DNA of 63,832 bases, filler included, from Sluysia triapertura (GCA_046118255.1; 5 parts of 5 records of this genome joined end to end with filler, not necessarily neighbours in it); one strand, 5' to 3'. Shown: positions 1 through 63,832, counted from the whole stretch's first letter. Notes: a model not told the origin generated them from the letters alone. Translations and numbers: made by a program.

Positions 1-460
1 AGCCTTTTATCCACGATCTTCCAATACTTAAATCTTGTTTTCAATTATGAACTTTAATCAACATCTAAGAACTCATTTTAACATTCTCTATTTCATCTCA
101 CGATTCAAATCAATTATTATATCTTCAAAGGTAATTATACTAAACAATTCTTTCAAAACAATTTTTACTCAAAAACTTTAGTCTCAAATACATTTTTAAT
201 TTATTTCAACATGTTAGAAATCTTTATGAATTAAGGAAGATCGTGTACAGTTTTAAAGAATTCAGTTGTATACAACGAAATAACAACAATAACTCGAGCA
301 TAGTGCACCCTGTTATTGTCGCTATTTCTTCTAATGTTATCAATTTTTATTTCTTTATATGTCAAGAAAGAAGTAAGGATGAAAGAAAGTTCGTGTCAGA
401 TTAATAAAAGAAAATTATGCATGTTTTTACTTTTTCCTTTGTTAATAATAATAACAATAT

Positions 461-617
461 TGTTAGACTTCGTAAAATGGACTGATCGGGGATCGAACCC
501 AGGACCATCGCCTGTGCAGTCGGTGCTCTATCACTGAGCTATCAGCCCCGTCTAACAATTTCATTTTTATTAAATTCAATTTTACCAAATGGCACTTTTA
601 GGCCATTTACCCCAACA
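461..617 (-). mobile_element. 157-bp TG...CA element (solo-LTR/TRIM-like) containing a tRNA-Cys-like sequence; 4-bp TSD ATAT
   Basis: Minus strand reads TGTTGGGG...GTCTAACA; ATAT on both sides (457-460, 618-621); the homologous site at ~18958-18970 lacks the insert. Confidence 0.75.
478..548 (-). pseudogene. tRNA-Cys(GCA)-derived sequence with A- and B-box-like Pol III motifs
   Basis: GGGCTGA TAGCTCAGTGATAGAGC ... CT-GCA-CA ... GGTTCGATCCCCG ... TCAGTCC; acceptor and D stems pair, T loop intact, anticodon stem does not pair. Confidence 0.75.
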
Positions 618-698
618 ATATTGTTATTGTTATTATTATTACCAAATTATTAAATTTAATAATCATTTAATTTTCATAAAAGTCACAATTGGTTACTA

Positions 699-867
699 CC
701 ATCACCAGTGTTGATACTACTCATCACAATCTTCATTATCGTGTCAACACTGATGATGGCCAATCATCAGTGATCATTATTGTTCTGAATAAAATTTGTT
801 TTTCCAACTATCATCCAATCAGGGCTAATTTTATTGAATTGTATATTGGCAAACCCTGATTGGATGA
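699..867 (+). promoter_or_regulatory. Overlapping hairpins plus inverted CCAAT-box pair (copy A)
   Basis: IR 699-717/741-759; alternative stem 748-772; perfect 14-bp IR tcatccaatcaggg (811-824)/ccctgattggatga (854-867); lies directly upstream of ORF 991. Confidence 0.6.
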
Positions 868-990
868 CCAACCACATACTAAGAGGCAAAAGATAGTATA
901 GTTAAAAATAGACATCCTATTTTAAAATAGAAGAGTAAAATTTCATTAATAACATTGTGAGAAAAATACTTAATATTATTTTTATAAATA

Positions 991-1752
991 ATGCAATCAT
1001 ATGATGTTCAATATTTTCATAAAAAGAAATGGAAAAAGGTAATTTTTAAATATGAAAGTAAAAGAAGAGTTAAATCATGTATTTCTGTATATATATTGGA
1101 ACCAGAAATAAAAAAGATTATTTTATTATATCAGTTATTTGGTTGTAATTCTACAAGTGATGAGAAAATTAATGTTTTACTTAGTAAAATTGACTTTTGT
1201 TTGATTTCCTTGAAATCGTCGGAGTTTCGGATGAAAGTATATGATGAATTGATTAAGTATATCCCAATAAGATATCACCATTTTGAAACAGAGGATTTTT
1301 CAAAACAAAAAGACTAGCAAATTCATTTACAAGAAAGCAGAATTCTTTTGTATAATTCTTCAGAACAACAAAAGCTGTCTATTATTAAAAGATGGTTTAT
1401 GCGTGACTTAGCTCATGTAAAATTTGAACTTATTAAACAAGATATCGAATTAGATATAATTGAAAATTCAAAAGTTGTTTTTAAAGTTTTATCAAAATCA
1501 CTAGACAATTTGAAAGCTCTTATAATATTTCTATTCGCAACAGCATTTGATATCAAAATTCTATTAATCGATTTAGTTAAACCTGACGCGTCTATAAATG
1601 CCATATTTCGATTAAGCCATTTTAAATATTCAAATGTATCTCCAAATTTGTTTATGCTTAAATATGCGGATTCATCTTTCAAGGTAATAACCGGTTATTA
1701 TGATTTTTGTGAAGAAATAGATTATCGTTATCTCAATGAGATGAAATTATAA
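991..1752 (+). CDS. Orphan ORF (~253 codons) broken by one in-frame TAG at 1315-1317; cargo of module A
   Basis: ORFs 991-1317 and 1348-1752 share a frame with only one stop between them; ATG start; no recognisable domain. Confidence 0.5.
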
Positions 1753-4900: not shown

Positions 4901-5028
4901 ATAATATTAAGTCTAAAAATAGATTAATTAATTAAAATCTTAATTAACTTAATAATTAAGATTTAATTAATTAATCTTTTTTAGACTTAATATTATTTTA
5001 TTCATAAAGGTTTTGTTAATGTTCTAAA
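4868..5028. repeat. Near-perfect palindrome with ~78-bp arms
   Basis: cattaacaaaacctttaaaaataaaataatattaagtctaaaaa...cttaatta / taattaag...tttttagacttaatattattttattcataaaggttttgttaatg. Confidence 0.9.
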
Positions 5029-7849: not shown

Positions 7850-8171
7850 AAGTACTTTTCGTATGAGTGAAACATTGGTGTTTCATCTATCATAAAAGAA
7901 TTTTCTATATCGGGCAAAAATTTTCGTTTACCACTGGATTATTATTTTGGTAAAATTTGTATTTATACACAAATTTTTAGCAAAACTTTTCTACTCCGTG
8001 TATATGCAAAGTGTTTAGTCATTTTTTGTCAGTGTGTGCGTATAGAAATATTTAGGAATATATAATATGAAGATAGAAATCATTTTTACGTCATGATAGC
8101 AAATATTAAGTACAAAGGTCACACTTTAGATGATATTAATCATTTAAAATTTAATCAATGGAAACCAAAAC
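7850..8171 (+). repeat. Dispersed repeat, copy 1 of 3 (others 13030-13471 plus strand, ~46080-46400 minus strand)
   Basis: Shares 'tttagtcattt...tgtgtgcg.ataga...tttagatgat...tcatttaaaatttaat...ccaaaac' with 13296-13471 and 'aaaattttcgtttacca.tgg...attttggtaaaatt' with 46201-46259. Confidence 0.7.
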
Positions 8172-13029: not shown

Positions 13030-13471
13030 AAATTACATCTTGTAATTTATTCACTTTCATAAATAAATTGACTAGATTATCTAATTCTCTATCAAAAGTA
13101 TCAGTATTGGACAAAGATTTTGGATGACAATCTCGACAGGTCAGCGATTTTGGTAAAATTGGTATTGTTTTATCAACTTGAATATGAAAAATTGTATGCA
13201 AAAATGATACGCGACTCATTTATGCACAAATTTTTTAGTGTTTATGAATGGACAGGAAAAATTTTCAATTCTACTTGTGTGCACACATAAATACAACAAA
13301 AAATTTAGTCATTTCTTTGTTTCTGTGTGCGAATAGAAAAATTTATGCGTATATAAATAGGTTCAAAAAGTCATTACGTCAATTTTTACGTTATTCTAAC
13401 AAGCATTAATTACAAGTGTCAAGTTTTAGATGATGAAAGTCATTTAAAATTTAATTAATTGCAGCCAAAAC
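13030..13471 (+). repeat. Dispersed repeat, copy 2 of 3, with a coding remnant on the minus strand
   Basis: Similar to 7917-8171; minus-strand ILPKS...FDRELDNLVNLFMK matches ILPKS...FDTELDNQINSFMK at ~46200-46320. Confidence 0.65.
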
Positions 13472-13619: not shown

Positions 13620-14679
13620 TGTAAGGTCATATTATTTAAAATATAAAATTGATTGGTTTATTAAATGAAAACACTCGCTGCAAAATACTGAATAAAACAC
13701 GAACAACGTAGGTAATCTCGCGGAGGGTAACATAATTTATATCTACTTAATTTATATAACATACATCCAATTTCCGCGGTGCACAGAAAATACACAGAAA
13801 ATCCTCTTTAAATTTATATGGCGTTCTCTCATCGAATCTATAGATTTACATTGTCGTGATAAATTTCATAGCAGATTCATTTAAATCGTGAGAATGGTAC
13901 AGATACTTTAGATTCATAAAACACGCTCACATTTTGCAGGAAACCAAAAAAATCATAAATAAAGCGTTAGAATATGATAGTGAAATGCGATGACAACAAC
14001 AATATGTTAACACTTATATTATTTTACTGTTAGTGAACGTTAATAATTTATTTTATGATGTTATTGCACAAGATTGGAATTTTGACTTTAATTGGCAGTC
14101 TTACGAAAACCATGACACATTTGGTTGAATAAAATATTGCCACAGATATTGAAGATTAATTTTCCCTTCTGATGATACTCTACGGAGAACTAAAAATTAC
14201 AACCAAAATGGAGGATTAAATAGAATCGAATAAAAGCAAGGTGGCGGATAAAAATGATTGCTACAATTGTACTGATGCTAGTTTATATAAGGGTCATCAG
14301 CAATAGAAATCGAAGGAATGTTCTAGAATATCTTGATTTAGGTGCACCTGATTTTATCTTATGAACATGATCAATAAATAAATGACAGTATAATAATGGT
14401 CTTAAAAATAATGAATTTTCATTATCCTTATTAAGTGTTTTTTGAAATAAAAATCTAGAATATTTACAATAAATTTCTAATTGGAAAATCAATGTTTTAT
14501 AATACAAATCATGTCTCATAATTTTTATTCCTTTATTTTATTAAAAAGCCATCGAAATTCGTAACATTACGTTGCAATTTCATTCTTTTTATATTGTATT
14601 ATATTTAACTGAATAATGCATTATTATTAAATCATTAATTATTGAGTAGGGCTGTTCCAGGTGCACCGGTGCAGGAAAA

Positions 14680-16040
14680 TCCTTCAAAGACTCAGCTCTA
14701 ATTCTATGAAATATGGATAAATGTAATTTCTTGGTGAATTACTTTGAATGTAAACAAATCTTTTGTTTACAATTACAATTACAATTATATTATAATAAAC
14801 AAATCTTTAAATGATTGTTCTTAATATTCATAATTTGGTGAATGTTTATAAAAAAAATACTGTTTATTATATTTATTTGGTGTAAAGCTATTGAAAGTGT
14901 ATTTAAATTTACTCAGTAAAAGTTTATTTGAATAATAATTACTAACTTTAATTAATAAAACATATCTATTAAAAATCCTTTAAAAACTACGACAATTCAA
15001 ATTAATTTTATGAAAAATCAAATAATAAAGACTATGTAAAAGGCACTTATTAAAACTGTACACAACATTAAATATATTTTGTATAAAATAAATATGAGAC
15101 GTCAAAACTTTAAGCACAAAATATGTAAAATTCGATGATCATTTTGAAGGTCCGACTTTACGACAATTACAATGAGGATAGTTATTAACTAAAAAGAAAT
15201 AAAAATCAAAAGATCGTACTTAATGTAAAGAACACAATATTTCATTCGCTTCCATATCAATAATTTTCATCTTTGTATTAGAATGAGTTTCAATCCATAT
15301 TGATTTTGTAGACGAAGTTAAAAGTTTCAACTCTTGCAAATCAATGGCTTCACATTTTATTCTAAATTTTATAGTTACTTTCATAAAACAAAGTTTAAAT
15401 TCTCCGTAAACATTAATAAGATAAGTAAACATCACTAAGATAAAAATAATTAGTTATAAAATTTAATGTAGCTAATCTTGAAGTGAGAGTAGTACAATAT
15501 TGACCATTTTCTATTACTACTATGGTTATTTCTAATGTTTCTTTTAGATGTTTCTTTGATGACTCGTTAGGGTGATGTCGATACATTTGAATTCATTTGG
15601 ATCAATTTTCATAATCATCCAGTCTTGATTCATTAAGTAGTACATTACGTAGTAACATCAATTTCATTATGGATCCATTGACATAGACTGGTATTGTTTT
15701 AAATACATATGAATATTGACAATTATCAGCATAACGAAGTAGATGATTAGGAATTTCATCATTGAATCAATTTTTAAATCTTCAAGAATAATATAAGTCT
15801 CGTCATGATAAGGTTTGAGAATAAACATGATTAAAATTAATGGTGAAAAATAAAATACACAATCGCCTTGCAAAAATTATTTGTTAAATTATTGTCACTG
15901 TCTAGTTATTAACATAACTTTAAATAATGTGACTAAAATTGTTGTGTTGTTAAATTTTGATTAACTATAAACCAATTATTCTTGTCGTAGTTAGATTAAA
16001 ATTTGAATGGTTGTGCACAATTTGTTTTTTATCTTTTGAT
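14680..16040 (-). repeat. Outer left arm of a large inverted duplication (partner 22505-24065)
   Basis: e.g. 15469-15510 is the reverse complement of 22925-22966 'aaatggtcaatattgtactact.tc.cttcaagattagctac'. Confidence 0.8.
15220..15690 (-). pseudogene. CTH: Cystathionine gamma-lyase (Cys/Met PLP family) pseudogene fragment, copy 1
   Basis: TKSIWIETHSNTKMKIID (family motif K-x-x-WIETPSNP-x-x-K-x-x-DI); upstream ENGQYCTT; stops and frameshifts. Confidence 0.7.
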
Positions 16041-16176
16041 TGGTGTTTTTTAGTCTCTTTTCACTCTGAAGTTTCTGACTCGCACAACTGCTTAGATAAC
16101 ACTCTATTGTACTTTCTACTGCAACACAATTAAATGAGATGTCAGCAAAATATATTGTCACCACTATCGAAGCGCG

Positions 16177-16410
16177 NNNNNNNNNNNNNNNNNNNNNNNN
16201 NNNNNNNNNNNNNNNNNNNNNNNNNNNNNNNNNNNNNNNNNNNNNNNNNNNNNNNNNNNNNNNNNNNNNNNNNNNNNNNNNNNNNNNNNNNNNNNNNNNN
16301 NNNNNNNNNNNNNNNNNNNNNNNNNNNNNNNNNNNNNNNNNNNNNNNNNNNNNNNNNNNNNNNNNNNNNNNNNNNNNNNNNNNNNNNNNNNNNNNNNNNN
16401 NNNNNNNNNN
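16177..16410. other. Scaffold gap (N run without linker)
   Basis: 234 N. Confidence 0.95.
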
Positions 16411-17294
16411 TTTATTCTAAAACTACTATATAGCAAAAACAATAAACGAATATAAAAATTTTGAATACCTCCAGTTCTGACAAGATTCTTCGAACTTTCT
16501 ACAAAGCTTTTCGAAGTTGTCAGTTCGTATTCTTGAATCATATCTTTGAAAATTTCTTCAATCATTTTCAGAGTTTCATTCTTTGTTCGGCTCTTTTTGA
16601 ATTTGCAAAATGTACATGAACTATTTTTGTTGGCCATTTACATATGGCATCTCGGAATTGATGAAACTTTACTCTGATCTCATTATATCTTTCCTTATAA
16701 TTTTGTATTGGCGCTTGTGCGTAACAAATTCTGCTGTTGTAATTGTTGATTTTGTATTATTGTACCAATTATTCGTAAGTGTTGTCTGAGATGTTAATTC
16801 TGGGTTTGTGATTGGTGTTATAGGTGAAGTGGTAGTGATAATATTATTTGTTTAGTTTATTCTGATAATACCAAAGAAAACAATTTGGATTGGCGATTGA
16901 AGTATCATGATTGGATGTAAGAAAGTGACCAAATATAACATGGTTACGGTTGGTACGAAAAAATGGGTTGATCTGAACATAGGTGCTTTTCCATAATCTG
17001 AATTACTATGTGTACTTTCTTCCAGTGTTACTTCAAGTAGTTCCGTCGAGTTTAGTCTTGATTACTGCTAACAGAAGTCCTAGTTTTCAGTTCTTCTTTT
17101 GATGTCATAATTGATTTCTGATCTTGACATATCGAATAAAATGTTTGTCTGTTGGATGATTATAACGTTGTGATTGAAGTGATGATGATTAGAATGACTC
17201 TACTCTTCTTGTCGTTGATGATGCTTTTGTATATCCTTTTGCCTTCACTTTTATTATCTTGAGTTTGAGTAAAATTGTTCTGATCATGATTATT

Positions 17295-17694
17295 GGTTAC
17301 ACTTGGATGTTCTATATCGCTTGATATTAAAGAAGTTTTGGAATCTGAGTAACAAGAGTATAGTAAATCAGCGGTTAATGAAATATTCGATAATGGTTGA
17401 ATCACATGAGCTTGTTTGATAATCACAAATGAGGCTAGTGAACAAGTAATATATAGACGATGATCTTATCGTTTATTTTTAAAAAAGGAAGAGAAACGAT
17501 AAAAATAAAATTACGAAGGAGTATCGTGAGAGAGTATAAACAAAGTTAAAATAAATTCCATTTAATTTATTTTTAAATTTTAAATACAAATTTAATAATT
17601 TTTTTATGTAATGAATGCTTTGGGTGTTGTAAAAATATGATTTTTAGTGTAGTTTGATGTATTAAAATTTTGTGTAAAAATGTTGGCCACCACA
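17295..17694 (-). mobile_element. Element end starting TGTGGTGGCCAAC; inner left arm (partner 20944-21378)
   Basis: Reverse complement aligns with 20944-21378 over ~400 bp (e.g. 'aatcatatttttacaacacccaaagcattcattacat' identical). Confidence 0.85.
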
Positions 17695-17874
17695 AATGTG
17701 ATGATTTTTGTATTTTTCTTTTTGTCGTTGAAAATATTCGACTGTTCGGGCAGATATTTTAATTAAATTAAAAGATCTTTTATAAAAAATTACATGAAAT
17801 TTATATGTAAATAATAAGTTGATAGTTGATTATAATCCATAATAATTTATATTTTCAAAAGTTTGTATTAAGCG

Positions 17875-19160
17875 TGTAGTGGCCAACCTCAACAACTACT
17901 AAAATTTTATTAAAAACCAATATCTTTTCTTCTCTTTTCATTATACTTTAACAATCACACATCCATACATACTCCTTAAAATCAATCTATATCCTCAACC
18001 TTACAACATCCAAATCACGATTACACCTAACAGTACTAAATTACATTAACTAATTTACAAGAAACATTACTCGACATTCACAATAATCCAACAACAAACA
18101 CATTTGAAACAATCCATTTAATAGTTTCGAACCCTTTATTTTACACTGCACTTTAACAATTAATACCTAATATTTAATAATATTTATTCAATAGCTTATT
18201 TACTTAAACCAAATCACAATCATAAACTCATAACACATAAACCACAATTACATTTAATACCATTTCACAACACTAATAAATCTACTTGAAACGCATAAAA
18301 TACCTACTTCACATCTTCGAATCAATTACAACGTTTCAAATGCACTATTCATCTATGCATAATCATCATCAACACAGTACAACAACACCAAAAACATCAA
18401 ACAAATTAATTACACAAAACATAGCATAATAACATCTCAAATATGCAAAGAGTTGTACTTCACTTGTTCTTTTAGATTCATTAAATTACAACCTTCTTAA
18501 TAAGCCTTTTAACCATAATATTTCAATACATAAATCTGCAATAAATGTAACTTCAATCAATATCGAAGAACTTATTCTAACATTCTGTATTTAATTTCAA
18601 GACTCATATCAATTACTATATCTTCAAAGGTTAATTATATCTACCAATTCTTTGGAAACAATTCTTAGTCAGTAATTTAGTTTCAAATAAATTTTAATCT
18701 ATTTCAACATGCTAAAACTTTTCAAGAATTTAAGCTAAATCGAACACATTTTTAAGAATTCATTTTTATATAATGAAACAACAACGATAACTCGAGTATA
18801 GTACACCCTGTTATCGTTGCTGTTTCACTCAGTTTTGTCAATTTTTATATTTTATTTTTATTCTTCATATGTAAGAAGAATATAAAAGAAAGAAAAGATC
18901 TTGTTATTTTTAAAAAAACGATTTATGCGTTATTTTCCATTTTATTAATAATAATAATAACAATATTGTTATTGCTACCACCACCAGTGTTGACACTACT
19001 CATCACAATTTTCATTAGCGTGTCAACACTGATGATGGCCAATCATCGGTATTGGCTGTTTTTGTCAATAAAATATTTACTTCTGCCTTTCATCCATCAG
19101 GTGGAATCTCATTAATTTTATATCACAGGTCCTGATTGGATGACCAACTACTGTACTGAT
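17875..19160 (+). mobile_element. TGTAGTGGCCAAC-initiated leader (~1.1 kb) plus hairpin module, copy B
   Basis: 18503-19160 matches 1-880; 17875-18590 resembles 24590-25081; module at 18977-19143. Confidence 0.8.
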
Positions 19161-19176
19161 ACTAAAATTAATTTTT

Positions 19177-19605
19177 ATGAACTCAAAAATAATTATTAAT
19201 TTTTTATTTGAGACGACGGAATTAGTTTCTTGCGGGATGGTCGAAGCTCATAACGTTATATTACTAAATGTCGACGTATCGTATGATATCAAATCCAATA
19301 TTCAAAATTTTTATGAAGAAATTGAAAGTGATGGATTCGAATACATTAGAGATGTTAAAAAATTTATTACCGCATTTGATGATCCGAATCAATTGTTCTA
19401 TCTCATTAATCGCACTTTAGATTCAGTTTGTAGTTATTACTTCATTTCCTTATCAGAGTCTCTTATGATAATCAAGAGTGATCATGTTAAGACTTATTCG
19501 TATAAATTAGTAGATGCTATCATGATTGAGTTAATAGCTCAACTAGCTGATGACGTGAATTTCAACTTGGATCTGACTAATCATGGTTTTACTGCATCAA
19601 ATTAA
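19177..19605 (+). CDS. Orphan ORF 1 of cassette B (142 aa); may join 19611-19913 through a frameshift
   Basis: ATG ~30 nt after the inverted CCAAT pair; protein-like composition. Confidence 0.55.
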   Translation: MNSKIIINFLFETTELVSCGMVEAHNVILLNVDVSYDIKSNIQNFYEEIESDGFEYIRDVKKFITAFDDPNQLFYLINRTLDSVCSYYFISLSESLMIIKSDHVKTYSYKLVDAIMIELIAQLADDVNFNLDLTNHGFTASN

Positions 19606-19610
19606 AGGAT

Positions 19611-19913
19611 TTGTGTGATTATAAAAATGACTATGAAATTGTCGAATTAAGAGATGCACGAGCTCAATTAAGTATGAAATTAAAAGGATTACAAGTTAAA
19701 AATGATGTATTGCAAGAATCTTTGAAAAATGTGCAAAAACCAGATACTGCTCTTTCACAAGCTAGAGAAGGTTTGAAAAATGCTAAGGTTGATCATATTT
19801 TAAATTATTCATCAACAATACGTCAAGTAATGGGAATTACGCGTAATTCAGTTATGTTACAAAATTTAATGCGCATTAGTGACAGATTGTCAATAAATGA
19901 AGAAAGATTCTAA
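19611..19913 (+). CDS. Orphan coiled-coil-like ORF of cassette B
   Basis: ELRDARAQLSMKLKGLQVKNDVLQESLKNV is heptad-like; TTG start, so more likely a frameshifted continuation of the ORF before it. Confidence 0.5.
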   Translation: MCDYKNDYEIVELRDARAQLSMKLKGLQVKNDVLQESLKNVQKPDTALSQAREGLKNAKVDHILNYSSTIRQVMGITRNSVMLQNLMRISDRLSINEERF

Positions 19914-19919
19914 GTCCTT

Positions 19920-20391
19920 ATGAGTCACCGTTATCGACCTTATCGACATAATCATAATTCATTAATGGAGTCTATTACTAGGTTAAATACTTTTGCAGAA
20001 CTAGTAAATCTTACACGTAACAGTTCAGAATCATCAAATGATAGTTCTCAAAATAACGAGTCATTGTCAGATACTTGGCAAACTTCAAGTAATAACAGAA
20101 ATACAAATATTATTGATCCTACAAGTATGTCTATCAACATGTCTTACACAAATACGTTGCCGATAATCTTAAAAATCAACACAGATATTTATATGCGAAC
20201 CAATGTCTTCAAAACCAAAAGATCATGTGCTACAAAAGAGAGACCGACAAAGGCAAAGCTTTTACAGAACATTACAGATAGTAAAATTTTATTTTATTTA
20301 TCATAATTACTACCTTGATATTATATTTTTTTTAGAATTTGATTCCAGCATGAGACTCGATGACATACTGACAGATGCAGCAAAAAGATGA
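19920..20391 (+). CDS. Orphan ORF starting MSHRYRPY, Ser/Asn-rich, with a probable 55-nt intron at 20281-20335
   Basis: ATG 6 nt after the previous stop; gtaaaa...tttttttag intron joins ...LLQNITD-KFDSSMRLDDILTDAAKR*. Confidence 0.5.
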
Positions 20392-20776
20392 ACAAAATTT
20401 AAATAAAACTCTGAAACTTATTAACCATATTTTTACAATGTTCTACAATTTAATAAATAATATTTTTTGTGTATTTAGTGAATTTTTGATTAATAAAGAT
20501 TCATATAATAACTTAAAAATCAAGTTAGATAAAATAAAAAGTAAATTAATAGTTTATACTACCTTTAATAACCAAATTGTTAAGTTTAGGTATTGTAATT
20601 TAATGAAAGATATCAAAGTATTACCACTCGGACACTGTAATTTAAACTTAATACTATTACGATATAAAAAGATAATATTTGAAACTTTGAAATTTTCCTT
20701 TTCATGTGAAAACAACAATCTTTTAAATCCGTATTCATCATACAAAAACATCAACTCCCCAAAAAGTGAACAATAA
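20375..20776 (+). CDS. Possible further orphan ORF/exons of cassette B
   Basis: 133-codon open frame, very AT-rich, may include intron sequence. Confidence 0.3.
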   Translation: MQQKDEQNLNKTLKLINHIFTMFYNLINNIFCVFSEFLINKDSYNNLKIKLDKIKSKLIVYTTFNNQIVKFRYCNLMKDIKVLPLGHCNLNLILLRYKKIIFETLKFSFSCENNNLLNPYSSYKNINSPKSEQ

Positions 20777-20943
20777 CATACTAAAACATTAGCTGACATA
20801 AGGTGGATGTAAATTATTAAATTATATGGTTAGAATAATACAAAATGAAATTAATAAATTCAGGAAAATACGTATATTAAGTTAATGTAAGTTCAAATTA
20901 ACTATATAATGAAAGCAATTAACAATAGAATTAACAATAGAAT

Positions 20944-21378
20944 TGTGGTGGCCAACATCTTTACAGAAAATTTCAATACATCACATTACACTAAAAATCA
21001 TATTTTTACAACACCCAAAGCATTCATTACATCAAAAATCATTAAATTTGTATTTAAAATTTAAAAAATAACAATAAACTAAATGGAATTTATTTTAACA
21101 CCTTTAACTTTGCTGCTCATACTCTCTCACGACACTCCTTCATAATTTTTATCTTTCCTTCTCTTCCTCCCCTAACAACAATTTAGAAGATCGACAACCG
21201 CATATTACATAATCACTCATGTTACGTACTCTTTCAAATATTTCTGATTATCAAACAAGCCAACGCGCTTCAACCATTATCGAATATTTTATTAACCGGT
21301 GATTTACTATGTTGCTTTTACTCAGATTCATAACTTCTTTAATATCAAGCGATATAGAACATCTAAGCTTAGCCAATT
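20944..21378 (+). mobile_element. Element end starting TGTGGTGGCCAAC; inner right arm
   Basis: Inverted copy of 17295-17694. Confidence 0.85.
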
Positions 21379-21544
21379 AAATCCACGAAATTCAAATGTA
21401 AAGAAACTGTTATTAGATAAGACGAATAACATGTGACCTTAAGAAAGAAGACATAAATATAAACGCGATAAAGAATGATTTCTATGTTGTAACAGAAATA
21501 AATAATTCTTCTATCATTGAAGCAATTCGGTATTACTTCATTGA

Positions 21545-21720
21545 AATTGCTTTCGAAATTAGATTCCGAGAAAGGTAGCTTCAGTTTACTATTTCCAGCC
21601 TTGGAAAAATTAAACGTTTCAAATAATGAAATCAGTAATGAACGTGTTTTAATTCTTGCTATTCCGTGGATGAAACTTATGCATCTTCAATTATACAATA
21701 ATCCAATAATCCTTCATTAA
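21545..21720 (+). pseudogene. Leucine-rich-repeat exon fragment, XRRA1-like
   Basis: FPALEKLNVSNNEISNERVLILAIPWMKLMHLQLYNNPII holds two LRRs and resembles the XRRA1 LRR region as recalled. Confidence 0.55.
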
Positions 21721-22504
21721 AGCTCTTTTAGAAAATACTTTCAAAATTCAAATGTCTACTGCTCAGAAACCTGTTAAAATGAATTTAAACTCAATTAATA
21801 GATAATAAAAGCACTTGATAATAAGCATAATTTATTCAAAAAAATAATTTAGTCGCTGAAAATTCTTTAGTTAGTGAAATTCCAAAACAAAAGGCAGTAG
21901 TTCAAATTCTACAGGAAACAGATGATAAATCAGGAAAAACATGGCAACGGTGGATTTAATTGATAAATTATCAGACTGATCATGTGATAGAGAAAAAGAT
22001 AATTTAAAATTGACTCGATATACTGCATTGAGAATATTACGATATAAACTAGACCATTCAATTACGTACTTCGAAAGAAACACAAAATTATACTCAATAC
22101 AAAATTCTCTCCAACCAATTAAAGTAATATTATCATTTTTAAATACAAAATTCAGTAGTTTTATTTTGAAACATTTATTAATTTCTGTGAGTTTATACTC
22201 GTTTTGAAAACAGTAGAATTAACTATATTAATTCTCTTTTGACTTCAATTAATTGCAAAATAAAGACAACAAAAACATTATTAGAAGCTTATTGATTATA
22301 GTTAATTTACAGCTATATGATAATAGCAATGATGATGATGGTGATGATGGTAATGTTAGTAATGATTATAATTGTGATTATTGTTATTATTATTGTTAGT
22401 TATTATCATTATTATTGTCATTATTGTGATTGTTATTGTTCTCAATTGTTCTATATTTGAGTTTTTACTGATCAATTTAGTTACTGTCATTAAATAACAG
22501 CTTT

Positions 22505-24065
22505 TTAGTCATCAAAAAATTTATATTAAGTATAATTGTGTGCAACTGTTGAAATTTTAATTTTGATACGATAGAATTATTTTAAGACCATTTTCAATTG
22601 GCTACAATAAATTAATTTAAGTCAATAGAGGGTTGATATTAGTACACAAAAAAATTAACAGCAGAACAATTTTAGTCACAATTCCAATAGCGTTGATCAT
22701 ACTTAAAAATTTTGTTCAATCTCAAAACTTATTATGACAAGACTTTAAAAATAATTCAAATATGTCGACATTTGACCTATACAGTGTTTATCACCATAAC
22801 GATCATGATGATACAGGACGAACAATAATAACACCAATTTCATTATTTACAACTTTTAAAATAGAATCAACAAATGAACCTATTCAAGTGATGATAATTA
22901 TAATGGAGAAACGCTAGAAGCTGAAAATGGTCAATATTGTACTACTGTCGCTTCAAGATTAGCTACGTTAATTTCTATAACTAATTTTAATTTTAGTGAT
23001 GAAACTTTATATCTCATTGATGTTTAAGGAGAAATTAAATTTTATTTTTTGAAAGTAACTGAAATTTAGAATAAAATGTGGCTATAGATCTGTAATATTT
23101 AGGATTATTAAAGAAATGTTCAACTTCATGTACTAAAATGATATGGATTAAAAATCCATCTAATCCCATCATGAAAATATTTGATATTGAAAAAGATATA
23201 AAAATTGACAAAAGTTTTGATAAGAATATTATTGTTGTAATTGATAATACATTTATGTCACTAGTTTGTCGATATCTTGTAAACCTTGTTTCTTATGTAA
23301 CAATGCATTCATTAACAAAAGATGTTAAAATTAACAAAAGTTTTGATAACAATATAATTGTTGTAATAGATAATACATTTGTATCACCAGTTATTCAACA
23401 ATCTTTAAATCACGGTGCTTATGTGGCAACACATTTATTAACAAAATATTAACAATATTTACAAATGTAACCTACGAACATCAAGATGATATAATCGACA
23501 CTAGTGGCTGTTTAATTATTATTTGGGCACAATCCAATACACCTATTACCATAACAACGTTATGTAAATCGAGTTTCAACTTCATAGACAAAGAAATATT
23601 TTATCTGTTATTGCAAGTACGGTATTTTAATTTTTATTCTCATTTCTTTTTAGTCGATGTATATATTCTTATATTAATCTATTTAAAGTCTTGCCTACAA
23701 CATGTTCAGTGATGTTCCAATATTTTATGTTTAATAAACTAGTATCTTCTACTTGTTTAATATTAATATATTTAATGTACATTTCGAATAAATGGCCTTT
23801 AAATTATTTTTGTTATTCATTTTTTAATAAATTTATTTTGAATTTAAAAATTTATAAAAGAAATTTCAATTAGTGTATGTTCATAATTAACACTAATAAT
23901 TTTACTTTAATAACTTTATTTCAATAATCATACACCAAATAAATCAAATAAATTTAACTAATCTTTATTCAAAAATAAAACACCAAATTTACAATAAGAG
24001 TTAATCTTATTGCTTGTGTAATTGGATTTTACAATAGATTTTGAGATAGTTATGAGGATTTTTCT
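22505..24065 (+). repeat. Outer right arm of the inverted duplication
   Basis: Reverse-complement similarity to 14680-16040. Confidence 0.8.
22810..23452 (+). pseudogene. CTH: Cystathionine gamma-lyase pseudogene fragment, copy 2, with an internal ~126-bp tandem duplication
   Basis: GRTIITPISLFTTFK; EAENGQYCTTVASRLA; MIWIKNPSNP; IVVIDNTF(M/V)S...H(S/L)LTK present twice (PLP-lysine motif SxTK). Confidence 0.85.
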
Positions 24066-24589: not shown

Positions 24590-25081
24590 TGTGGTGATCA
24601 ACCCTTAACATGATTAAAATTCGATAAAAATAACTCTTAACATTCTAATATTCACACACTATTTTATTCACAATCTTATAACTTACACTTCACACTTAAT
24701 CAAATACCACCAATTTACACCAACAAATCCGTCAAAAATACATTACTCGATATTCATAATAATCAAACAACAACTAGATTCGAAATTATCTACTCGATAC
24801 TTTCGAGTCAATTATAACACATTAAATCCATCATTTTTCATTACGTAACCACTAACAATACAAAAGACAATAACACTTAAAACAACAAGAAAACAAATCA
24901 TATATAACATTACACTATAACCTTTCAAATATACTATAATTATAATTCATTATAATTCATCTTGTCGCACTTACTAAACCACACTCTTCTCAGTGTATTT
25001 TTTCTTCGCAATCTCTCAATGTTTAAATGTCGTTTTCAGTCAAAAACATTAGTTATCATCTAGAAATTCACTCTAACATTC
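24590..25081 (+). mobile_element. Another leader copy (TGTGGTGATCAAC...), cut off by the scaffold end
   Basis: 'cattactcgatattcataataatcaaacaac' vs 'cattactcgacattcacaataatccaacaac' at 18065. Confidence 0.7.
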
Positions 25082-25257: not shown

Positions 25258-26152
25258 AACTAGAAGATCTTCGTGTTCTTTCGAACTGTGATGGTTTTAT
25301 AGCTTCTGATTTTCAAACATTATACTAGACCAACTCGCTTTCCAATATTATAAGAAAGTTAAATCTGATATTGTGGCGCATTCATTTTCCCTATATAATG
25401 TCCTACAGTTGCATCCCATAATGCAGTTTTATCTTTTGATTTAAAAAAATATTTTGGTGATCATTTACAAGAAGTTGAATTTTATATTTGTAACACTCTT
25501 TTAATTAATGACTATAGTGACCTTATTTTAAATAATGTTCACGAAGATTTTGAAGGAGGAAAGTTAGATAATATTTTAGAGTAAGACCTTTGTTAATATT
25601 GTCAAATCAACTAATCAATAAAAGCTCCATCAACAACAATAAAAAAACAACCATTCCCGAGTTCGACATATATAATCATATTATCGTTGTTTGGCCTACA
25701 ATGGTTACCTATTCGAGAAAGTACGTACTCTCGACACAATTTTATGCTTAATTTTTATTCGGTGTTTATTTTACTGATAAATTTTTTATGGTGTTATTCT
25801 TTTTTCAGGGTTATATGATAAAGATCAAGTTTCGATAAAGTATTTAGGGACCTTATTTATTTCCATATGTTAATACAATTTAAAATCTTTTGATCAATGC
25901 AATTTATAATATATGAATAGATCAGAATAGTGCAGATATTAGTTTTAAATTACTGAAGGTTTAGATTACCTGTCAAAAAGGTAGAAAATTTTCAGTTTAT
26001 ATTCTATAAGTTAAAAGTATTAATTACAATGTGGGTTAAGAATCAATCTAATTTTAAGACAGAAAATGATAAATAATCTCAGTAAAATCATGCTGGTTCC
26101 TTGAACAAATGCATGCTTTAATGAAATGTGATTCAAAACAATACACACTAAC

Positions 26153-26393
26153 TGTAATATCAATAGCGTACAATCCGAATAATTCACCGCGACCTAGTTT
26201 CAACTGCCAAATTCGTAAGTTTTTTTCCATTAAAATCAATTCTCCATTTGCGGTACACACTGCTATGTATGGTTCTTGAGCTTTCCCATTTCTTCGAATA
26301 TTTCCTATAACTTCAGTACGTAATTCATTAGTTCTATTGGAATCCTTGCCTCCACTTTCTTCAACAATGTATCGATACCATGTAGATGGTTGT
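26153..26393 (-). CDS. ITFG2: ITFG2 (KICSTOR subunit)-like exon
   Basis: ttcag acceptor and gttagt donor; open frame TEVIGNIRR...YIAVCTANGELILME...IWQLKLGRGELFGLYAIDIT resembles ITFG2 as recalled (THLIGNI...FALCTLDGTLKLME...LW...LFALEKLDVTG); flanking exons not identified. Confidence 0.7.
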
Positions 26394-27649
26394 CTGAATA
26401 TAATTAAAATAGTTTAATTAATTCAAATAAAATTAAAATGAAACTTCTAATTTATTTCGCACAAACAGCTTCAAAATCAGAAACATAGAAAGCATTTCGA
26501 AAATGCATTTAAAATTAAGAAATAGATACAAAAAACAAAAATGGAATTTCAAAAATTTCTATATTTAATTGAGAAATATAGAAAGCTATAAATTAAACAG
26601 GGGAACTACAGGAATAAAAAAACATGTAATTTTAATAGAAATGAAACGCAAATACAAAGGGATTACAAATGATTTAAATTCTAAAACTTTATTCGAATTA
26701 ATCAAGACCTTACTATTTTATACATACACTACAGATGCGGACTGAACCATTTTCTTCTCTACAGTTTTATCATAATGAATGACTGTGCAAGTTTAATCAG
26801 GTTTTTCATTTTGAAGAATTGATTGTCTTGATATTTGAATACCCAAATTATTTAGTTTGAAGTTTTTAAATTTATGTTACATGTACATTAAGCAACTTAA
26901 ACACCATTTTGATTTTTAAGCAGCTTTCATATTGCATTTTATAGAATTAATAGGAGCATTAATATTATTCGGAATCGTAATGTTATTTCTAATACATTGA
27001 ATTCTGTAATTTAAAAACATTACAACTAGAAAATTGAAGTATCAAAACATTAGAATAAGAAAAGAAACATTACGTGGAAAGAAACTACCAAGTACCTAGA
27101 TAAATGTGATTCTCAATCTTATTGTCGCGGCACACAAACATAACAAAAAGATACAATTAAAAGAATTTCACTTGTTTAATTGATTGATGTACTTATAATT
27201 ATAAGTTGCAGTGTGCACACTCCAATCTATTGACTAATAGACTAAACAATATATAGTATTATAAGCCCGTAGATAAAGCTGCAACAGTCGTGAGTATTAT
27301 ATCCAGGTTTGGCGTGTTAATAAAAGCTTGTGCCTAGGGCACTTAGTAGTATAATAACGTTCGAAATTTAAAATGACACTAAACATATATTTATGAAAAG
27401 TTATGACACAAAAGTTAGAATTTACAAGTCTTTTTGGTTGCAGGGACTGTTACCGAAGCTCTCATTGACATACTCGGACCTCTTTTCAATTCGTACCTTA
27501 ACAAGCCCTAGTAAGTCCAACCCGGCTGAGTGAGTAAAACCTTCAAAAAATTTTAAAAACCCGTCGTTTTCAAATTTTGTACTCCCTAGGAGCTTACAAT
27601 CAGATAAATAATCAACTCCCAAGTTTTATTGTTCATTCAGACTCTTTTT

Positions 27650-32439: not shown

Positions 32440-32945
32440 TCAGAATTATCCATTCTACCTTTTTATGTTTTAATACAATAACTGATGCATCTAAAAGTCA
32501 AGACAATTTATTGTGAATATATCGATAACGTAAAGTGCCTGTTGGTCAACAATGAGTTTGAATTTTGTGTTCCAATTGTAAAATTAAATTTCATGATATT
32601 TAAGAATTTGATCAAAGTAATTATGAGAAATTTTTATCTTCCATCTTTTTATGTTTTTAATACAACAAGTGATATGTTTAAAAGTAATAAGGCAATTTAT
32701 TGTGAATATGTCCATAATGTGAAGTGTCTGTTGGTTAAGAATGTTGTGGTTGACATTAAAGACAGACATTAAGTTTGAATTTTGTATTTCAATAATAAAA
32801 TCGAGTTTCATATCTCGTAATTTGATCAAATTAACCACACGTAATTTTTATCATTTATCTTTTTATGTATTTTATGTAACAAGTTATATGTTTAAAAGCC
32901 ACAAAGCAATGTATCGTGAATATATCCATAACGTAAAGTGTTTAT
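32440..32945 (+). repeat. Diverged tandem repeat, ~3 units of 190-220 bp
   Basis: 'tttttatgt...aaaag...caat.tat.gtgaatat.tc.ataa.gt.aagtg' recurs at ~32460, 32646 and 32860. Confidence 0.85.
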
Positions 32946-33004
32946 GTAAATTTTATAAAATTTTATAATTCTTGCAATTTTTATCATGTCTATCGTGTAA
33001 ACGA

Positions 33005-34010: not shown

Positions 34011-37000
34011 ACATTTTGATAATTGACATCACTTGATTTTTTATAACATGAACACTGACTTTAATGTTCATTTGTTTATTTGTTTACTGACTCATTTGTT
34101 TATGTACTTGTTTGTCCAGATTTGTTGAATTGTAAATTTAGTTGTAAATTTGTATTAATTTTAGTTAAATTTATATTATTTTTATGTAATTATTATTTAT
34201 AAATATGAATATTTTATTTAAATTATTTTCGAAATAAAATTAAATATCAAATTTAAAATTAAACAAGAAATGTTAAAATTAAAATATTAATCTTAGTAAA
34301 ATTAAATAAAGTTTTAAAAATAAAATATTTTGCTTGTTTTAATTTATCAGATAATAAATATGGCTGCCCAACTGAAAAATTCACTATATAAACAGGTGAA
34401 TTTTTCATTATGGTGACCAGAAATTATTTACAATCATCGAAAAAGAAAATTTCCACTAGCAAGTTTTCCATGCAGAAGTAATTGTTTTCGTTTAAGTATT
34501 TTTCTTATTCTAAATAAGAATCAAACTATTTAAAACTTGTGCTTAATTTAAAAGTAAATTATTTTTGAATCGTATTAAGAAATCATTTTTTTGCTTAAAT
34601 ACAATTAATTGAATATTATTATTATATTTTGTGTCACTTTTATGTTTAGTTTTCCTTTGAGTTAAATAATTTTTTTATTTTAACACTTTTTAATTTAATT
34701 TTAATTTTTTAGTATACGATAGACCATAAGAGCTAGCTCAACGTTTAGTATAATTTAAAATTCGATTGATTTTTTAACACTAGACCTAAAAGGCTAGCTC
34801 AATATTATTTGACAAACTAGACCATAACGGCTAGTTCAACCTTCATAATAAGATAAATTGAATTAAGATTGATAGCTATATTGTGCAGTAAAATTACCAA
34901 ATTAGCATAAATTATCGTTAACATAAAGTCACACGCATTCGATAAAAATCCTAGTTGATATAAATCGTGCTTATTAGGTAGACATAACCTCCAGACATTT
35001 TGTAAGAATAAGTGTACCTAATTCATAATAAAATTCTTGCAATAACAATAATAAAATAATATGAAATTCTTTTCCTCCTGTTTCTTTTTAGTAGAGCCCA
35101 TTGGTACAATTTTGGATATAACAAACAATTGTATAGTTTACAAGTTTCACATAAATTATAAAAATTAAAGTCACTTAAAAAAGGACTTCAACAATAAAGT
35201 TTTAACAATGGCTAAAATTATTAAAAATTTTGATTGACAACTGTTGCAGCCACTCCAGATTTCATTGGTTTAAACTTAACGTCAATATCCAGTGATTAAA
35301 TTGTGGTGGTCAAACTCATTACATATGATTTTAATACAAAGTCACCTCATAACAAAATTTTTACCATTATCCTATATAACAAAATTCGCAGTTTAAATCA
35401 CATAATCCTTAACCTTTCCACAGCCCTTCACACACTTTCAAATCAAGCAATTTGAAACATCATTTAATTAAACATTTTAACTGCAAACAATAACATTGCA
35501 CTGGACAAATTCACCTTACAGATTATCCACAGACTTAATTTATATTCATATTACATTAACGCAAGATGCCATCACAATTCGGGAATTCACCTTAGATTCA
35601 CATGCCCTTAGAATACCAAATAAAAATATTTAAAAGTCATACTTTACAATACCTAATTCATTTTACAAACTCATTCCAACTCAAAGAATTTGTATCCCAT
35701 ACGCAAAAAGCCAAACAATAAATTACATACTGTAACAAAAAATAACAAATAAAATATATGTGAATAGAAGATTTAAAATAACTAAAGATTAATCACAAAA
35801 AGAACATTAAACACATCTTTTAACCCATTAAACTTTAGTGAAAATTGACTATAATGCCTAAAAATTATTACACATAATTACACTACAGATTACTATTGTT
35901 GTGGATGTTGTTAGTTTGTTAAAAATAGTTAAATTTATTTGGTAAGATTATTGACTTATTAAGTAATGAAATTAAATTGGTTGTTAGATTGTTATTTGCA
36001 AGTGATATATTAATTAAGATTATCAAACGATATTTAAGTTTTAATTTTATTATCAATATTAATTTCAAATTTATATCATTTCCTTTTAAATTACAAAATT
36101 TTCAATTAAAATTTTATAAGATTTATAAGATTTGGNNNNNNNNNNNNNNNNNNNNNNNNNNNNNNNNNNNNNNNNNNNNTTAATTAATTAANNNNNNNNN
36201 NNNNNNNNNNNNNNNNNNNNNNNNNNNNNNNNNNNCTTATTGTTACTCCTTGTATTAACTTTATTTACTTTTAAATTTAATTTTCAATTTTTTATAACTG
36301 TGTGATAAATATCACAGAATCATCAATGCATGTAACGTCTTTTTAAGCAACTGACAAATTCGAAACTGTAAATGAAAACATTAAATTAAAAATGTAACAT
36401 TAAATTAAATATTGGATTATTTAATTTAATTTAACTTTTATTAAATTATCCAAACGTATATTTTCATAATTTATAATGCCAGTTAAATAAATACATGGAA
36501 ATATTCTTGAACTTCATAAAATCGACTGATCTAAATTGGAATTTAAAAATTTGTGTCAGCCTAAACATTTTGTCTATATTAATTATTATTTTAATATTAA
36601 TATTATTTTAATCATATTTAAATAATAATTATTATTATTATTATAATATCAAATTAAGATCAATTTAAAGATGGCAAATTAAGGATGGATTACTCGATAT
36701 ATATATATTTTAGAAGTTTTTATGTAAACCTAAATTTATTAGCAAAATACTTTACATTTTTTGTTGAAGTTTAATAAAGAAACAAAATAAAAAAAACATA
36801 AAAAAAATTTATTCAAAATATATTTGACAAAAACAAATAAAAAATAAAATATCAAAGAGAATTTAGTTTTATATTATATAATTTAATTTATGCTTTATTT
36901 AAATGTATAATGATAATGATAATAATAATAATAATATAAGTTTTAATAATACAATATAAATAATATCAATAATAATAAATAATACAAAATTACAATGTGA

Positions 37001-61195: not shown

Positions 61196-62788
61196 TTAGC
61201 ACGCTATGGGAGAGCTCGTAGTCTTGGGTCGAAATTTATTGTAAAAATTTAAAAAATCAATTGGAAATCTTTTATTATATAGTTGACGAACGTGTTGAGG
61301 GCATTTGAAGCTAATACCGTGAATCATTAGATTCATGTGTTTAGTTGGTTCGCAATTTGTGGTTAGATAGGTTTGCTCTAACGTTAATTTAAGAATCACA
61401 TTCTTGCCCTGAATAACTACGAGCTGGTTGAGTCTATCGATGTTACGCAGTGGTAAAATAGTTAACTTTTCATATTTTGGAGATGTAGGTCGTTTTATGT
61501 GAAGGAAACTGTCGGTTTCCACAAAAATCATAGAAAATTTGCTCAAACAGAGTTGATTAAACCCCGTATATCTTTTATAAAGGAATTTCGAATAATTCAT
61601 ATTAAAATTATTATTTATTAAATATACATGTGAATAAAGGACAATTACAGAATTTATTAATTTGTACAAAGGTTTGAATTTGTTCAAAATTGGCCTCATC
61701 TTCATTCTATGGCGGCTCTCTTCCTTCTCCAAGGATCCATCTTCGTCGATGCACTGTATAGATTCTCTATAATACAAAAAATAATACAAATAGTAAGTTA
61801 AAAGGTAATTATAACGTTGTATTGCAGTAATAATTAAGAATGGTAAATATTTGATGTTACTAATGGATAAGGCAAAAACAAATAGCATTACTTTATCATC
61901 TTTGGGAGAATAGAGAAGGCCGTTGAACTGGATGATATACATAGTATGGCCAGCGAGTAGTGCTTCCCAGTGTGCCCGCATCTGAAGACGTTGAGTTTGA
62001 TCTGAGAGTTGAGCGCTCCTTTGGTTGACCTTGCATACCTGCTTTAATTGCGAAGCACCGTCGTACCATGAGCAGAATACATCATTATATACTACTTCGG
62101 GCAGATTGATACGTGCTAATTTGGGTAGGCCATCATCCACTGACTTGATTACATCATATTTACAATTAAACATTTCGCTAAAATCACAATTTATACAGTA
62201 TATGCAGTAGGGATCTGTGGACAATAAACACTCACGATTTTCGTATCTAGCTAAGCTTTCTTTAACTAAAACTTCTACAAAGTCTAAAATTTTAACATTG
62301 CAAACTCCCGCTTTGTTCCACTTTAGAATGTCACCACCCTTGTCAGGAACTGGATCTAAAACTTTAACAGAACATGTATCATGTCTAAGATTATTCATCG
62401 CATAGATTATCAGAACAGTTTTGGGCTTATCATCTAAATTTCGCAAGCAAATAATTGTTGATTGTTCATAATTTAGTAAATCATTCTTTGAGTTATCATA
62501 ATGACTGTTAGCCAGCTCGTCATCCATCATTTGGGTTGTCAGAACACTTTTAGTTTTATCATCTAAATTTCGCAAGCAAATAATTGTTGATTGTTCATAA
62601 TTTAGTAAATCATTCTTTACGTTATCATAATGACTCTTACCCAGCTCGTCATCCATCATTTGAGTTGTCAGAACACTTTTAGTTTTATCATCTAAATTTC
62701 GCAAGCAAATAATTGTTGATTGTTCATAATTTTGTAGATCATTCTTTACGTTATCATAATGACTCTTACCCAGCTCGTCATCCATCAT
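61196..62788 (-). CDS. Orphan ORF (530 codons) with three N-terminal 43-aa repeats and a Cys cluster; cargo of module C
   Basis: Longest ORF in the window; MMDDEL...STIICLRNLDDK x3; CIYCINC; the C-terminal third may be intron or antisense LINE read-through. Confidence 0.6.
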   Translation of the reverse strand: MMDDELGKSHYDNVKNDLQNYEQSTIICLRNLDDKTKSVLTTQMMDDELGKSHYDNVKNDLLNYEQSTIICLRNLDDKTKSVLTTQMMDDELANSHYDNSKNDLLNYEQSTIICLRNLDDKPKTVLIIYAMNNLRHDTCSVKVLDPVPDKGGDILKWNKAGVCNVKILDFVEVLVKESLARYENRECLLSTDPYCIYCINCDFSEMFNCKYDVIKSVDDGLPKLARINLPEVVYNDVFCSWYDGASQLKQVCKVNQRSAQLSDQTQRLQMRAHWEALLAGHTMYIIQFNGLLYSPKDDKVMLFVFALSISNIKYLPFLIITAIQRYNYLLTYYLYYFLYYRESIQCIDEDGSLEKEESRHRMKMRPILNKFKPLYKLINSVIVLYSHVYLINNNFNMNYSKFLYKRYTGFNQLCLSKFSMIFVETDSFLHIKRPTSPKYEKLTILPLRNIDRLNQLVVIQGKNVILKLTLEQTYLTTNCEPTKHMNLMIHGISFKCPQHVRQLYNKRFPIDFLNFYNKFRPKTTSSPIAC

Positions 62789-62797
62789 TTGAGTTGT
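62410..62797. repeat. 3 x 129-bp tandem repeat
   Basis: Near-identical units 'ttatcatctaaatttcgcaagcaaataattgttgattgttcataat...ccagctcgtcatccatcatttg'. Confidence 0.95.
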
Positions 62798-62985
62798 CGT
62801 GATTGAATTTTATCTGACGCTTGAAACTAATTTTTTGTTGCTGCTTACTATATTTGTCTCTGTCTTATTAATTTGTAAAAAATGTCTGGATAATTTTTCA
62901 TTAAAAACAATGGCTGCCAAAAAATTTTTATTTTTTTGTCTGCTTAATTAATTTTTTGATTTTTGTACTTTTATTGGCTGATGCG

Positions 62986-63108
62986 TGACATACCCAATCA
63001 GAGTGTATTTCATTATTCTGACGATATTTTTAGCTCTGATTGGGTAATGTTACAAATGATGAAAATTTAATTTTGCACTGTCATCAGCAGTGTGTCGATG
63101 CAGTTGTT
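62986..63108 (-). promoter_or_regulatory. Hairpin plus inverted CCAAT-box pair (module copy C, diverged)
   Basis: tacccaatcagag (62991-63003)/ctctgattgggta (63034-63046); minus-strand 'acactgctgatgac' resembles 'acactgatgatggc' of copies A and B; upstream of ORF 62788. Confidence 0.55.
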
Positions 63109-63832
63109 ACGTAATAGTTATTACTGAGTAACTATGGATAATGATAGTACTAAAAGTACTGATGAATCATAATGATAATAATGAAGAAATAGTACTAATG
63201 ATAATAAATAAAGTTAATAATAAAATAATAAATAATAAAAATGAGAATAATAATAAATACAAAGCATGAAATGAATCACATAATTATTTGTAAACATTCT
63301 TCTGTTATTTAGAACTTTTCTTTCTCTATAAAATAATTGGGGTTAAGGTATTTTCTTTAAACCATTTAAAATTAATTGTGATTTTATAATCAGTGTTAAA
63401 ATGAGAGGCTTGAGTAGAGAATTTCATTACTAATAATTTGTACTTTATAATTTGTTAAGAATCTATTCAGCACATTAATTAACAACATAAAAATGTCTTT
63501 TTAAAGTTTCTCGAATGTATCGTTATTTAAAATAAATGTGTGAATAAAAATGATAAAATTATAATGATAAGAAAAATAAAAATCAGGGGTCGTAATGGGA
63601 AGAAATGCCAGTAATAAAAGATAAGCAGTCCTGAGGAATCAATGCATAAATCTTGTGTCTTTTTATCTATTCACACAAGCTTTTCTTACATCTTTTTATT
63701 CTAACATATTGGAAAAGAAAATGAAATGAGAAGTGTTGAATATAATTTGTTAGCGTTAATTGCTGTTTTATAATTTGAAAGCAGGGTCTAAACATTAGGT
63801 TTGAACTATTTGTTGGAAAGATTGAAGTTAAG

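Follow-up and report, generated by a model that had tools for sequence, protein, structure and literature searches.

We analysed a stretch of 63,832 nucleotides from Sluysia triapertura (GCA_046118255.1), referred to here as the window, which consists of five scaffolds joined by spacers and contains about 25% GC. It holds members of a repeat family that we are on balance inclined to read as non-autonomous DNA transposons with integrase-type TG ends, which capture and reshuffle host gene fragments (Pack-type). Three copies of the family (A, B and C), each a hairpin-rich module followed by cargo, sit on three separate scaffolds, as a first-pass annotation of this DNA had reported, and two sister elements (L and R) lie on either side of copy B. 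The module is the inner part of an end region of about 1.2 kb that belongs to a very abundant repeat; what the annotation had noted about the module as a whole is confirmed in part and reinterpreted. Its broader proposal, a mobile family whose end region stays constant while the cargo inside is exchanged, is upheld by contig breaks at the element ends and by the swapped middle of L and R.

Element ends and the exchanged interior of L and R

Contigs of two public runs (X1 and X2) were aligned to positions 17100-21600 at 80% likeness. At position 17875, the outer end of B, 67 X1 contigs break, and 63 break at 17694, the outer end of L. The flanks beyond these two breaks are unlike one another (agreement of 0.43 and 0.40, respectively). 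Read inward, both ends begin with TGT(A/G)GTGGCCAAC. The 13-mer end motif, which in B reads TGTAGTGGCCAAC, is present exactly at 17875, 17694 and 20944, and with two mismatches at 24590 and 35302. Two types of end can be distinguished, type 1 at B and type 2 at L and R. The 24590 end scored 117, a value reached by none of 898 decoys. Similarity outside the motif, or a profile built without them, confirms the 24590 and 35302 ends as relatives. Deep contig cover extends over about 230 bp of the type-2 end. The first-pass annotation had rightly described part of the B leader (18503-18960) as shared but had not recognised the sharp end at 17875; it had also overlooked the sister ends at 17694, 20944, 24590 and 35302, to which the motif, contig and profile evidence points. 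TGTAG and TGTGG, found at the contig-defined ends, both conform to TGTNR, the 5′ end pattern given for Ginger1, Ginger2 and Gypsy ends in the available part of the source (PMC2836005). On account of this pattern, an integrase-type DDE transposase would act on the ends.

Nowhere is the exchange of a middle within an otherwise constant frame clearer than in the pair L and R, which both point away from B. Their initial 435 bp are 79% identical; about 1.2 kb of unlike sequence follows, and then short shared patches. Past the unlike middle the two elements are again collinear, at 76% identity in a cystathionine gamma-lyase fragment and at 65% in a distal block.

Several other candidate ends were considered. 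The segments 17292-17694 and 20944-21377 do not form inverted repeats enclosing B: their TG ends face B and the elements point away from it. The segment 35870-36135, which might have supplied the 35302 element with a second end in the form of a type-1 leader, scored 71 where the best unrelated decoy scored 70, and was not counted. Nor was a match to CLEC16A counted, which one of 150 frames gave at E 0.0005 within the type-2 end. A possible type-1 end at 7098-7190 (+) has three mismatches to the motif, and decoy tests gave it no support beyond the motif. On the inward strand C exceeds G, with a skew of 0.5-0.7, at 17875-18500, 20944-21180, 24590-25081 and 35302-35870; single-stranded exposure during replication or transcription could produce this excess. 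In metagenome contigs the end motif occurs at 119 loci at least, none of them similar to the window among the matches listed.

Features of the repeat family in the window (positions counted from the first letter of the window)
Feature	Position	Strand	Basis or remark
Copy A, leader and module	1..875	+	interrupted by tRNA-derived insertion
tRNA-like repeat inside A leader, anticodon TGC	478..548	-	Rfam RF00005, 38.3 bits
A cargo, 253-codon frame	991..1752	+	TAG in frame at 1315-1317
Sister element L, with cystathionine gamma-lyase fragment (15250-15511) between a middle of its own and a distal block common to R; type-2 end at 17694	14863..17694	-	63 contig breaks, unlike flanks
Terminal motif of B, outer end	17875..17887	+	contig breaks and motif matches
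B leader (type-1 end)	17875..18960	+	C-rich inward strand, very high copy, 75.5% to 1-465
Leader hairpin 0 of B	18774..18827	+	A counterpart 276-329
Module hairpin 1 of B	18978..19038	+	A counterpart 699-759
Module hairpin 3 of B, CCAAT-containing arm	19090..19143	+	left arm short of one A
B cargo 1 (ORF1), probable decayed Diaphanous-formin FH3 fragment	19177..19605	+	match 19279-19536
B cargo 2 (ORF2), coiled-coil-like stretch, then ubiquilin fragment	19581..19913	+	match 19776-19874
B cargo 3, begins MSHRYRPY	19920..20776	+	frame break; multi-copy
Sister element R, with cystathionine gamma-lyase fragment (22923-23452) between a middle of its own and a distal block common to L; type-2 end at 20944	20944..23952	+	blocks collinear with L; lyase PF01053 E 1.2e-18
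Diverged type-1 end, cut by scaffold end	24590..25081	+	nhmmer E 1e-5 to B leader
Diverged type-2 end	35302..35362	+	profile of L and R not including it, E 0.0036
C cargo, decayed RNMT N-terminal half, then other sequence	61196..62798	-	RNMT match 62225-62518
Hairpin 3 of C	62991..63046	-	13-bp perfect arms
C upstream patch, weak match to A/B leader	63637..63739	-	profile E 0.067

Cargo of the three copies

Judged by sequence matches, the identifiable cargo consists of broken pieces of housekeeping genes, namely RNMT, ubiquilin, cystathionine gamma-lyase and, likely, Diaphanous. The first-pass annotation had taken the cargo for orphan genes, which mostly does not hold; of the three copies, only A has cargo entirely without a match. 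Host gene fragments lie inward of the ends of a likely non-autonomous element, which is a trait of Pack-TYPE and Pack-TIR elements.

The cargo of copy C begins with a match to PF03291 (E 4.5e-18), the N-terminal half of RNMT, which is the guanine-N7 methyltransferase of the mRNA cap. The initial 129 bp of this piece are present in triplicate, and in an alignment to the solved enzyme (PDB) the glycine-rich motif reads VLDPVPDKGG instead of VLDLGCGKGG. An intron of the GT-AG type (125 nt, 22% GC) is predicted at 61891-61767, and an atlas search with the C tail gave no usable match. In copy B, the ubiquilin fragment in ORF2 matches PF23195 with E 2.4e-6 (27.6 bits against a cut-off of 27). ORF1 is likely to be a piece of the Diaphanous FH3 domain, as suggested by matches to PF06367 (E 0.0016, under the curated cut-off) and to mDia1 in the PDB (E 0.008). 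ORF1 and ORF2 overlap in different frames, at odds with the spacing of 5-6 nt between the B ORFs in the annotation. The MSHRYRPY frame and the last frame of B have no Pfam match; between them lies a predicted GT-AG intron of 55 nt with 13% GC (20281-20335). PDB searches with ORF2 and ORF3 returned no match. The A frame had no real match in Pfam, PHROGs or homologue searches; its single match, P0001, was rejected, as it consists of about 12 repeats of one 53-residue unit that aligns to residues 1-25. Single-sequence folds of the A frame and of B ORF1 had a mean pLDDT of 36.

The Pfam scan covered 311 frames of the window: 11 ORFs, 149 of the 160 segments of 56 residues or more (the other 11 being the ORFs themselves), one extra frame and 150 of 176 shorter segments taken from three regions. 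No transposase, integrase or viral family was found among them, in agreement with the earlier remark that the cargo carries no visible transposase or integrase, and none of nine cargo frames matched PHROGs. The cargo frames show no clear homology across cassettes, in line with the first description, and did not prove to be members of one family or known transposable-element ORFs. No pair of frames from different cassettes reached z 4. The best, B ORF4 against the C tail (z 3.6, 1 of 300 shuffles; E 0.034), was left as unproven.

Summed X1 contig depth, which is not a copy number, ranged from 6,700 to 46,400 in the leader, hundreds of times the 41-72 of the flank bins, and from 610 to 1,740 in the B cargo; the bin 18912-19062 includes an AAT microsatellite. 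Single variants are common to 14-24 contigs in the B cargo and to 33-93 contigs at most of the listed leader places. Moreover, a diverged contig with 42 differences in 306 letters spans the junction between ubiquilin and ORF3 (19845-20153). The B cargo is multi-copy, with several diverged copies. Depth is 4,134 at 19048, falls to 75-233 at 19217-19229 and rises again to 1,395 at 19404. This dip implies that module and cargo are mostly combined otherwise, or else that their junction has diverged further; at 80% likeness, the junction of B is lacking from most copies of the module and from most of the cargo. A sharp inner end with unlike flanks, as expected from solo long terminal repeats (LTRs), was absent from the six best-supported X1 loose-end rows. 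X1 is possibly the sample behind the assembly and offers a view of other copies rather than independent support for their occurrence. In X2 the repeats were present at very low depth, one identical cargo piece included, which we take as a trace of the same organism and not as transfer.

The end region and its surroundings

The leader and module of A and B are clearly homologous. By blastn, 1-465 matches 18503-18971 with 75.5% identity over 482 columns (E 4e-82), which bears out the claim of a leader common to both copies upstream of the module, and 664-875 matches 18938-19151 with 77.4% identity over 217 columns (E 1e-36). Together these homologies amount to about 650 bp at 75-77%. Copy A has its outer end outside the window, about 630 bp ahead of the first letter. 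Its leader is interrupted by the tRNA-like repeat, which ARAGORN did not call and which is likely a short interspersed element (SINE) or a pseudo-tRNA. Three more partial copies in the window, at 3355-3436, 57023-57076 and 60383-60412, make up with it (478-548, -) a short repeat family that is likely a SINE.

Copy C was not joined to A or B by blastn or by single-sequence nhmmer. The module had been said to occur three times; this stands for A and B but not, by these searches, for C. In pairwise alignment the C module scores 40 against the A module, which none of 300 shuffles reached, and just 21 against the B module, reached by 109 of 300. Upstream, 63739-63637 scores 57 against B 18838-18934, reached by no shuffle out of 300 and by 3 of 428 real decoys, and 42 against A (1 of 300 and 12 of 428, respectively). 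The two C patches are collinear. Copy C is thus a probable diverged member of the family, weakly linked to A and B by sequence.

Perfect inverted repeats whose arms span at least 11 bp and include at least three G/C number five in the window, and three of them belong to the module. The module folds better than shuffled sequences in all three copies, with z of -5.7 (A), -2.3 (B) and -3.6 (C). The inverted pair CCAATCAG...CTGATTGG, described earlier for all three, is exact in A and C, with spacers of 33 and 34, respectively, but not in B, where the left arm reads CCATCAG in place of CCAATCAG and is one A short. When one missing A is tolerated, the CCAAT pair occurs three times in the window and never in 200 dinucleotide shuffles. 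Among the 20 pairs of hairpin 0, A and B differ by three double-sided and no single-sided changes, with two pairs broken; 71 of 500 shuffles did as well, which is not significant with two sequences. For hairpin 3, read from the sequence, 3 of 13 pairs differ between A and C on both sides and none on one side only. Near-palindromes can undergo template-switch correction, and the kept pairing may reflect either this process or a function. Palindromes other than the module hairpins are also present in the window, among them an AT-rich one of 160 bp (4869-5028). One inverted repeat in a run of hairpins at 6740-6960, with arms of 12 bp and a loop of 32 nt, has a relative at 14266-14331. The module had no match in the Rfam scan, which returned just the tRNA-like insertion and, below threshold, a histone stem-loop (E up to 1). 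Hammerhead, C/D, H/ACA and microRNA readings of the module were dropped after comparison by eye with the known motifs.

Outside the repeat family, 55759-56892 (+) carries the 3′ half of a poly(A)-binding protein (PABP) gene, covering the last RRM and the MLLE domain, while the scaffold lacks the RRMs expected ahead of them; 54629-55024 (+) is a decayed second copy of the PABP 3′ end (79%). The named matches among the best 120 to this fragment are all animals, with about 58% identity in the conserved RRM part; the search covered proteins of at least 661 residues, which makes for a weak host placement. From these sequences the host is likely a long-branch animal. The stretch 57200-59950 (+) is richer in GC (36-38%); its frames are, by eye, what we take to be a decayed non-LTR retrotransposon (reverse transcriptase followed by a restriction-like endonuclease), and its scanned segments gave no Pfam match at E 0.001. 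A frame at 26057-26413 (-) matches Itfg2 (PF15907, E 1e-6), and another at 44850-45095 (-) matches a twin BRCT domain (PF12738, E 4e-5); they may be exons of real genes or further fragments. Dispersed repeats of 70-83% link 4441-4897 with 54099-54545, 7684-7808 with 47535-47659, 8014-8171 with 13304-13471, 13054-13176 with 46185-46318, and 40489-40593 with both 41543-41624 and 47407-47510. Three diverged tandem units of about 190-210 bp at 32446-32965 (+) contain short open frames without Pfam match.

Origin of the family and comparison with known systems

In the Pack-type reading that we favour, an integrase-type transposase encoded elsewhere would move the family, a Ginger-like DDE enzyme recognising the TG ends. 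Host-gene pieces would enter the elements as DNA and be exchanged among copies: copies that lie close together or have a single end might pick up the intervening DNA, or gaps might be filled from other loci, and whole chimeras would transpose afterwards. The GT-AG intron-like stretches in the cargo, of 13% and 22% GC, fit DNA-level capture. The hairpins and CCAAT boxes belong to the end region and would at most drive inward transcription of junk chimeras. It is quite unlikely, in our estimate, that the family shuffles animal host exons at the scale of plant Pack elements, with the hairpin-CCAAT end region as a working inward promoter or packaging leader and some chimeras (Diaphanous-ubiquilin-ORF3) expressed and feeding new gene families.

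Several observations weigh against the Pack-type reading. Type-1 and type-2 ends clearly share just 13 bp, compared with Ginger repeats of 40-270 bp; beyond these 13 bp, B against R scores 50, reached by 1 of 898 decoys, and the score of B against L is reached by 28 of 898. Within the window there is no element with both ends and no target-site duplication; no second end for B was found before 20944, on scaffolds of 11-14 kb. A transposase is missing from the scanned frames, and the parent genes are not seen in the window. Both cargo introns are predicted from sequence. Homologue searches with B ORF1 gave nothing real, to which its Pfam match under the cut-off adds. The loose-end evidence covers just 12 of 1,276 rows. 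The link of C to A and B is weak, and the outer end of C lies beyond the window. Finally, all four of the four identified genes run in sense, away from the end, and RNA-based capture predicts the same.

This last point leads to an explanation that we regard as unlikely, in which the ends are LTRs, or an LTR plus leader, of non-autonomous LTR retrotransposon derivatives whose hairpins package or dimerise the RNA and which acquire host mRNA by template switching. The elements start with TG, the L/R homology stops at CCA after about 400-435 bp, and the four sense-oriented genes agree with such a route, as do hairpins that fold better than shuffles and change on both sides. Multi-gene chimeras formed in this way have been described in animals, according to the portion of the study at hand (PMC5131818). 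However, the cargo holds intron-like stretches, a primer-binding site common to A and B is not seen in the sequence, and depth drops stepwise inward, with no sharp inner end among the best-supported rows. No matching direct repeat closes B either, which is a weak objection, as B may be truncated.

Alternatively, and again with little likelihood in our view, the ends could be relics of an abundant transposon, the fragments having arisen by transposition-independent repair or segmental duplication and been multiplied by duplication. Fragments without a visible end do occur, namely the PABP 3′ half and its partial second copy; L and R, inverted and 3.2 kb apart, resemble a local inverted duplication; and gap filling is credited for most animal Pack-TIRs in the accessible text of PMC8277862. 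Against this, the B cargo is about 15-40 times deeper than the flank bins and the 180 bp outside the end are not, and the similarity between copies ends at the TG ends, beyond which the flanks are unlike.

The segmented or endogenous virus suggested by the first-pass annotation, that is, multipartite or polydnavirus-like segments with a common promoter or origin region and one gene set per segment, is very improbable: a structured region is shared and followed by differing co-oriented frames, and the A frame and parts of B and C lack a family match, but the identified cargo is broken housekeeping genes in broken frames, PHROGs and Pfam gave no viral match, no single cargo comes near the end region in abundance, the CCAAT pair occurs at 120 viral loci at least, none of those listed resembling the module or cargo (two have a 33-nt match to an unrelated place), and neither Pfam, PHROGs, the PDB nor the viral loci yielded viral replication or capsid genes on segments sharing the common region.

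The transposons favoured here share features with several known systems, which are compared below from the parts of the cited sources that were available. Ginger1 and Ginger2 have the same TGTNR 5′ end and invertebrate animal hosts; they are further defined by terminal inverted repeats of 40-270 bp, target duplications of 4 bp and an integrase of Gypsy-like DDE type, and the available text mentions no host-fragment cargo in them (PMC2836005). GingerRoot of Selaginella, grouped here with IS3EU, also has integrase-type ends, mostly TA...TA and in a few cases TG...CA, so that the TG found here is the rare form. Many of its ends are unpaired; among 77 intact elements, 22 bear gene fragments with introns, several from two genes, and the cargo carriers have usually lost the transposase (PMC6839031). 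It offers a precedent for integrase-type elements with intron-containing fragments of one or two genes. However, GingerRoot has inverted repeats of 100-150 bp and 6-bp target duplications (PMC6839031), whereas here the end is TGT(A/G)G, the end region of about 1.2 kb contains hairpins and the host is likely an animal. LTR-mediated animal retrocopies are similar in forming sense multi-gene chimeras behind a repeat that starts with TG (PMC5131818), and differ in that intron-like stretches are present here and a flanking direct repeat or primer-binding site is not seen. Pack-CACTA elements are also non-autonomous and merge fragments of several genes, and the proposal that they capture DNA through closely spaced copies or lost ends recalls the cluster of ends at 17694, 17875, 20944 and 24590; they differ in their CACTA ends and plant hosts, and their mobility has been demonstrated, while that of the present family is inferred (PMC6379663).

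Animal Pack-TIRs likewise enclose host gene sequence between transposon ends and are at times multiplied; 370 were reported in 100 reference genomes, 87% of them hAT or Tc/Mariner and 4 multi-copy (PMC8277862). In comparison, about 64 kb here contain four cargo-bearing elements with identified genes, including one multi-copy multi-gene chimera. A limited search of the open literature found no account of Ginger-type gene capture in an animal. The process of gene capture is itself known; its scale, the TG ends and the multi-copy multi-gene chimera would make the present family a variant of it, provided that the host is an animal. Fragment pseudogenes of this kind resemble orphan ORFs and will inflate the annotation of this genome. 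If the Pack-type reading is true, the many copies would allow DNA-based and RNA-based capture to be tested, and gene capture, common in plants, would extend to another superfamily and another scale in a likely animal host.

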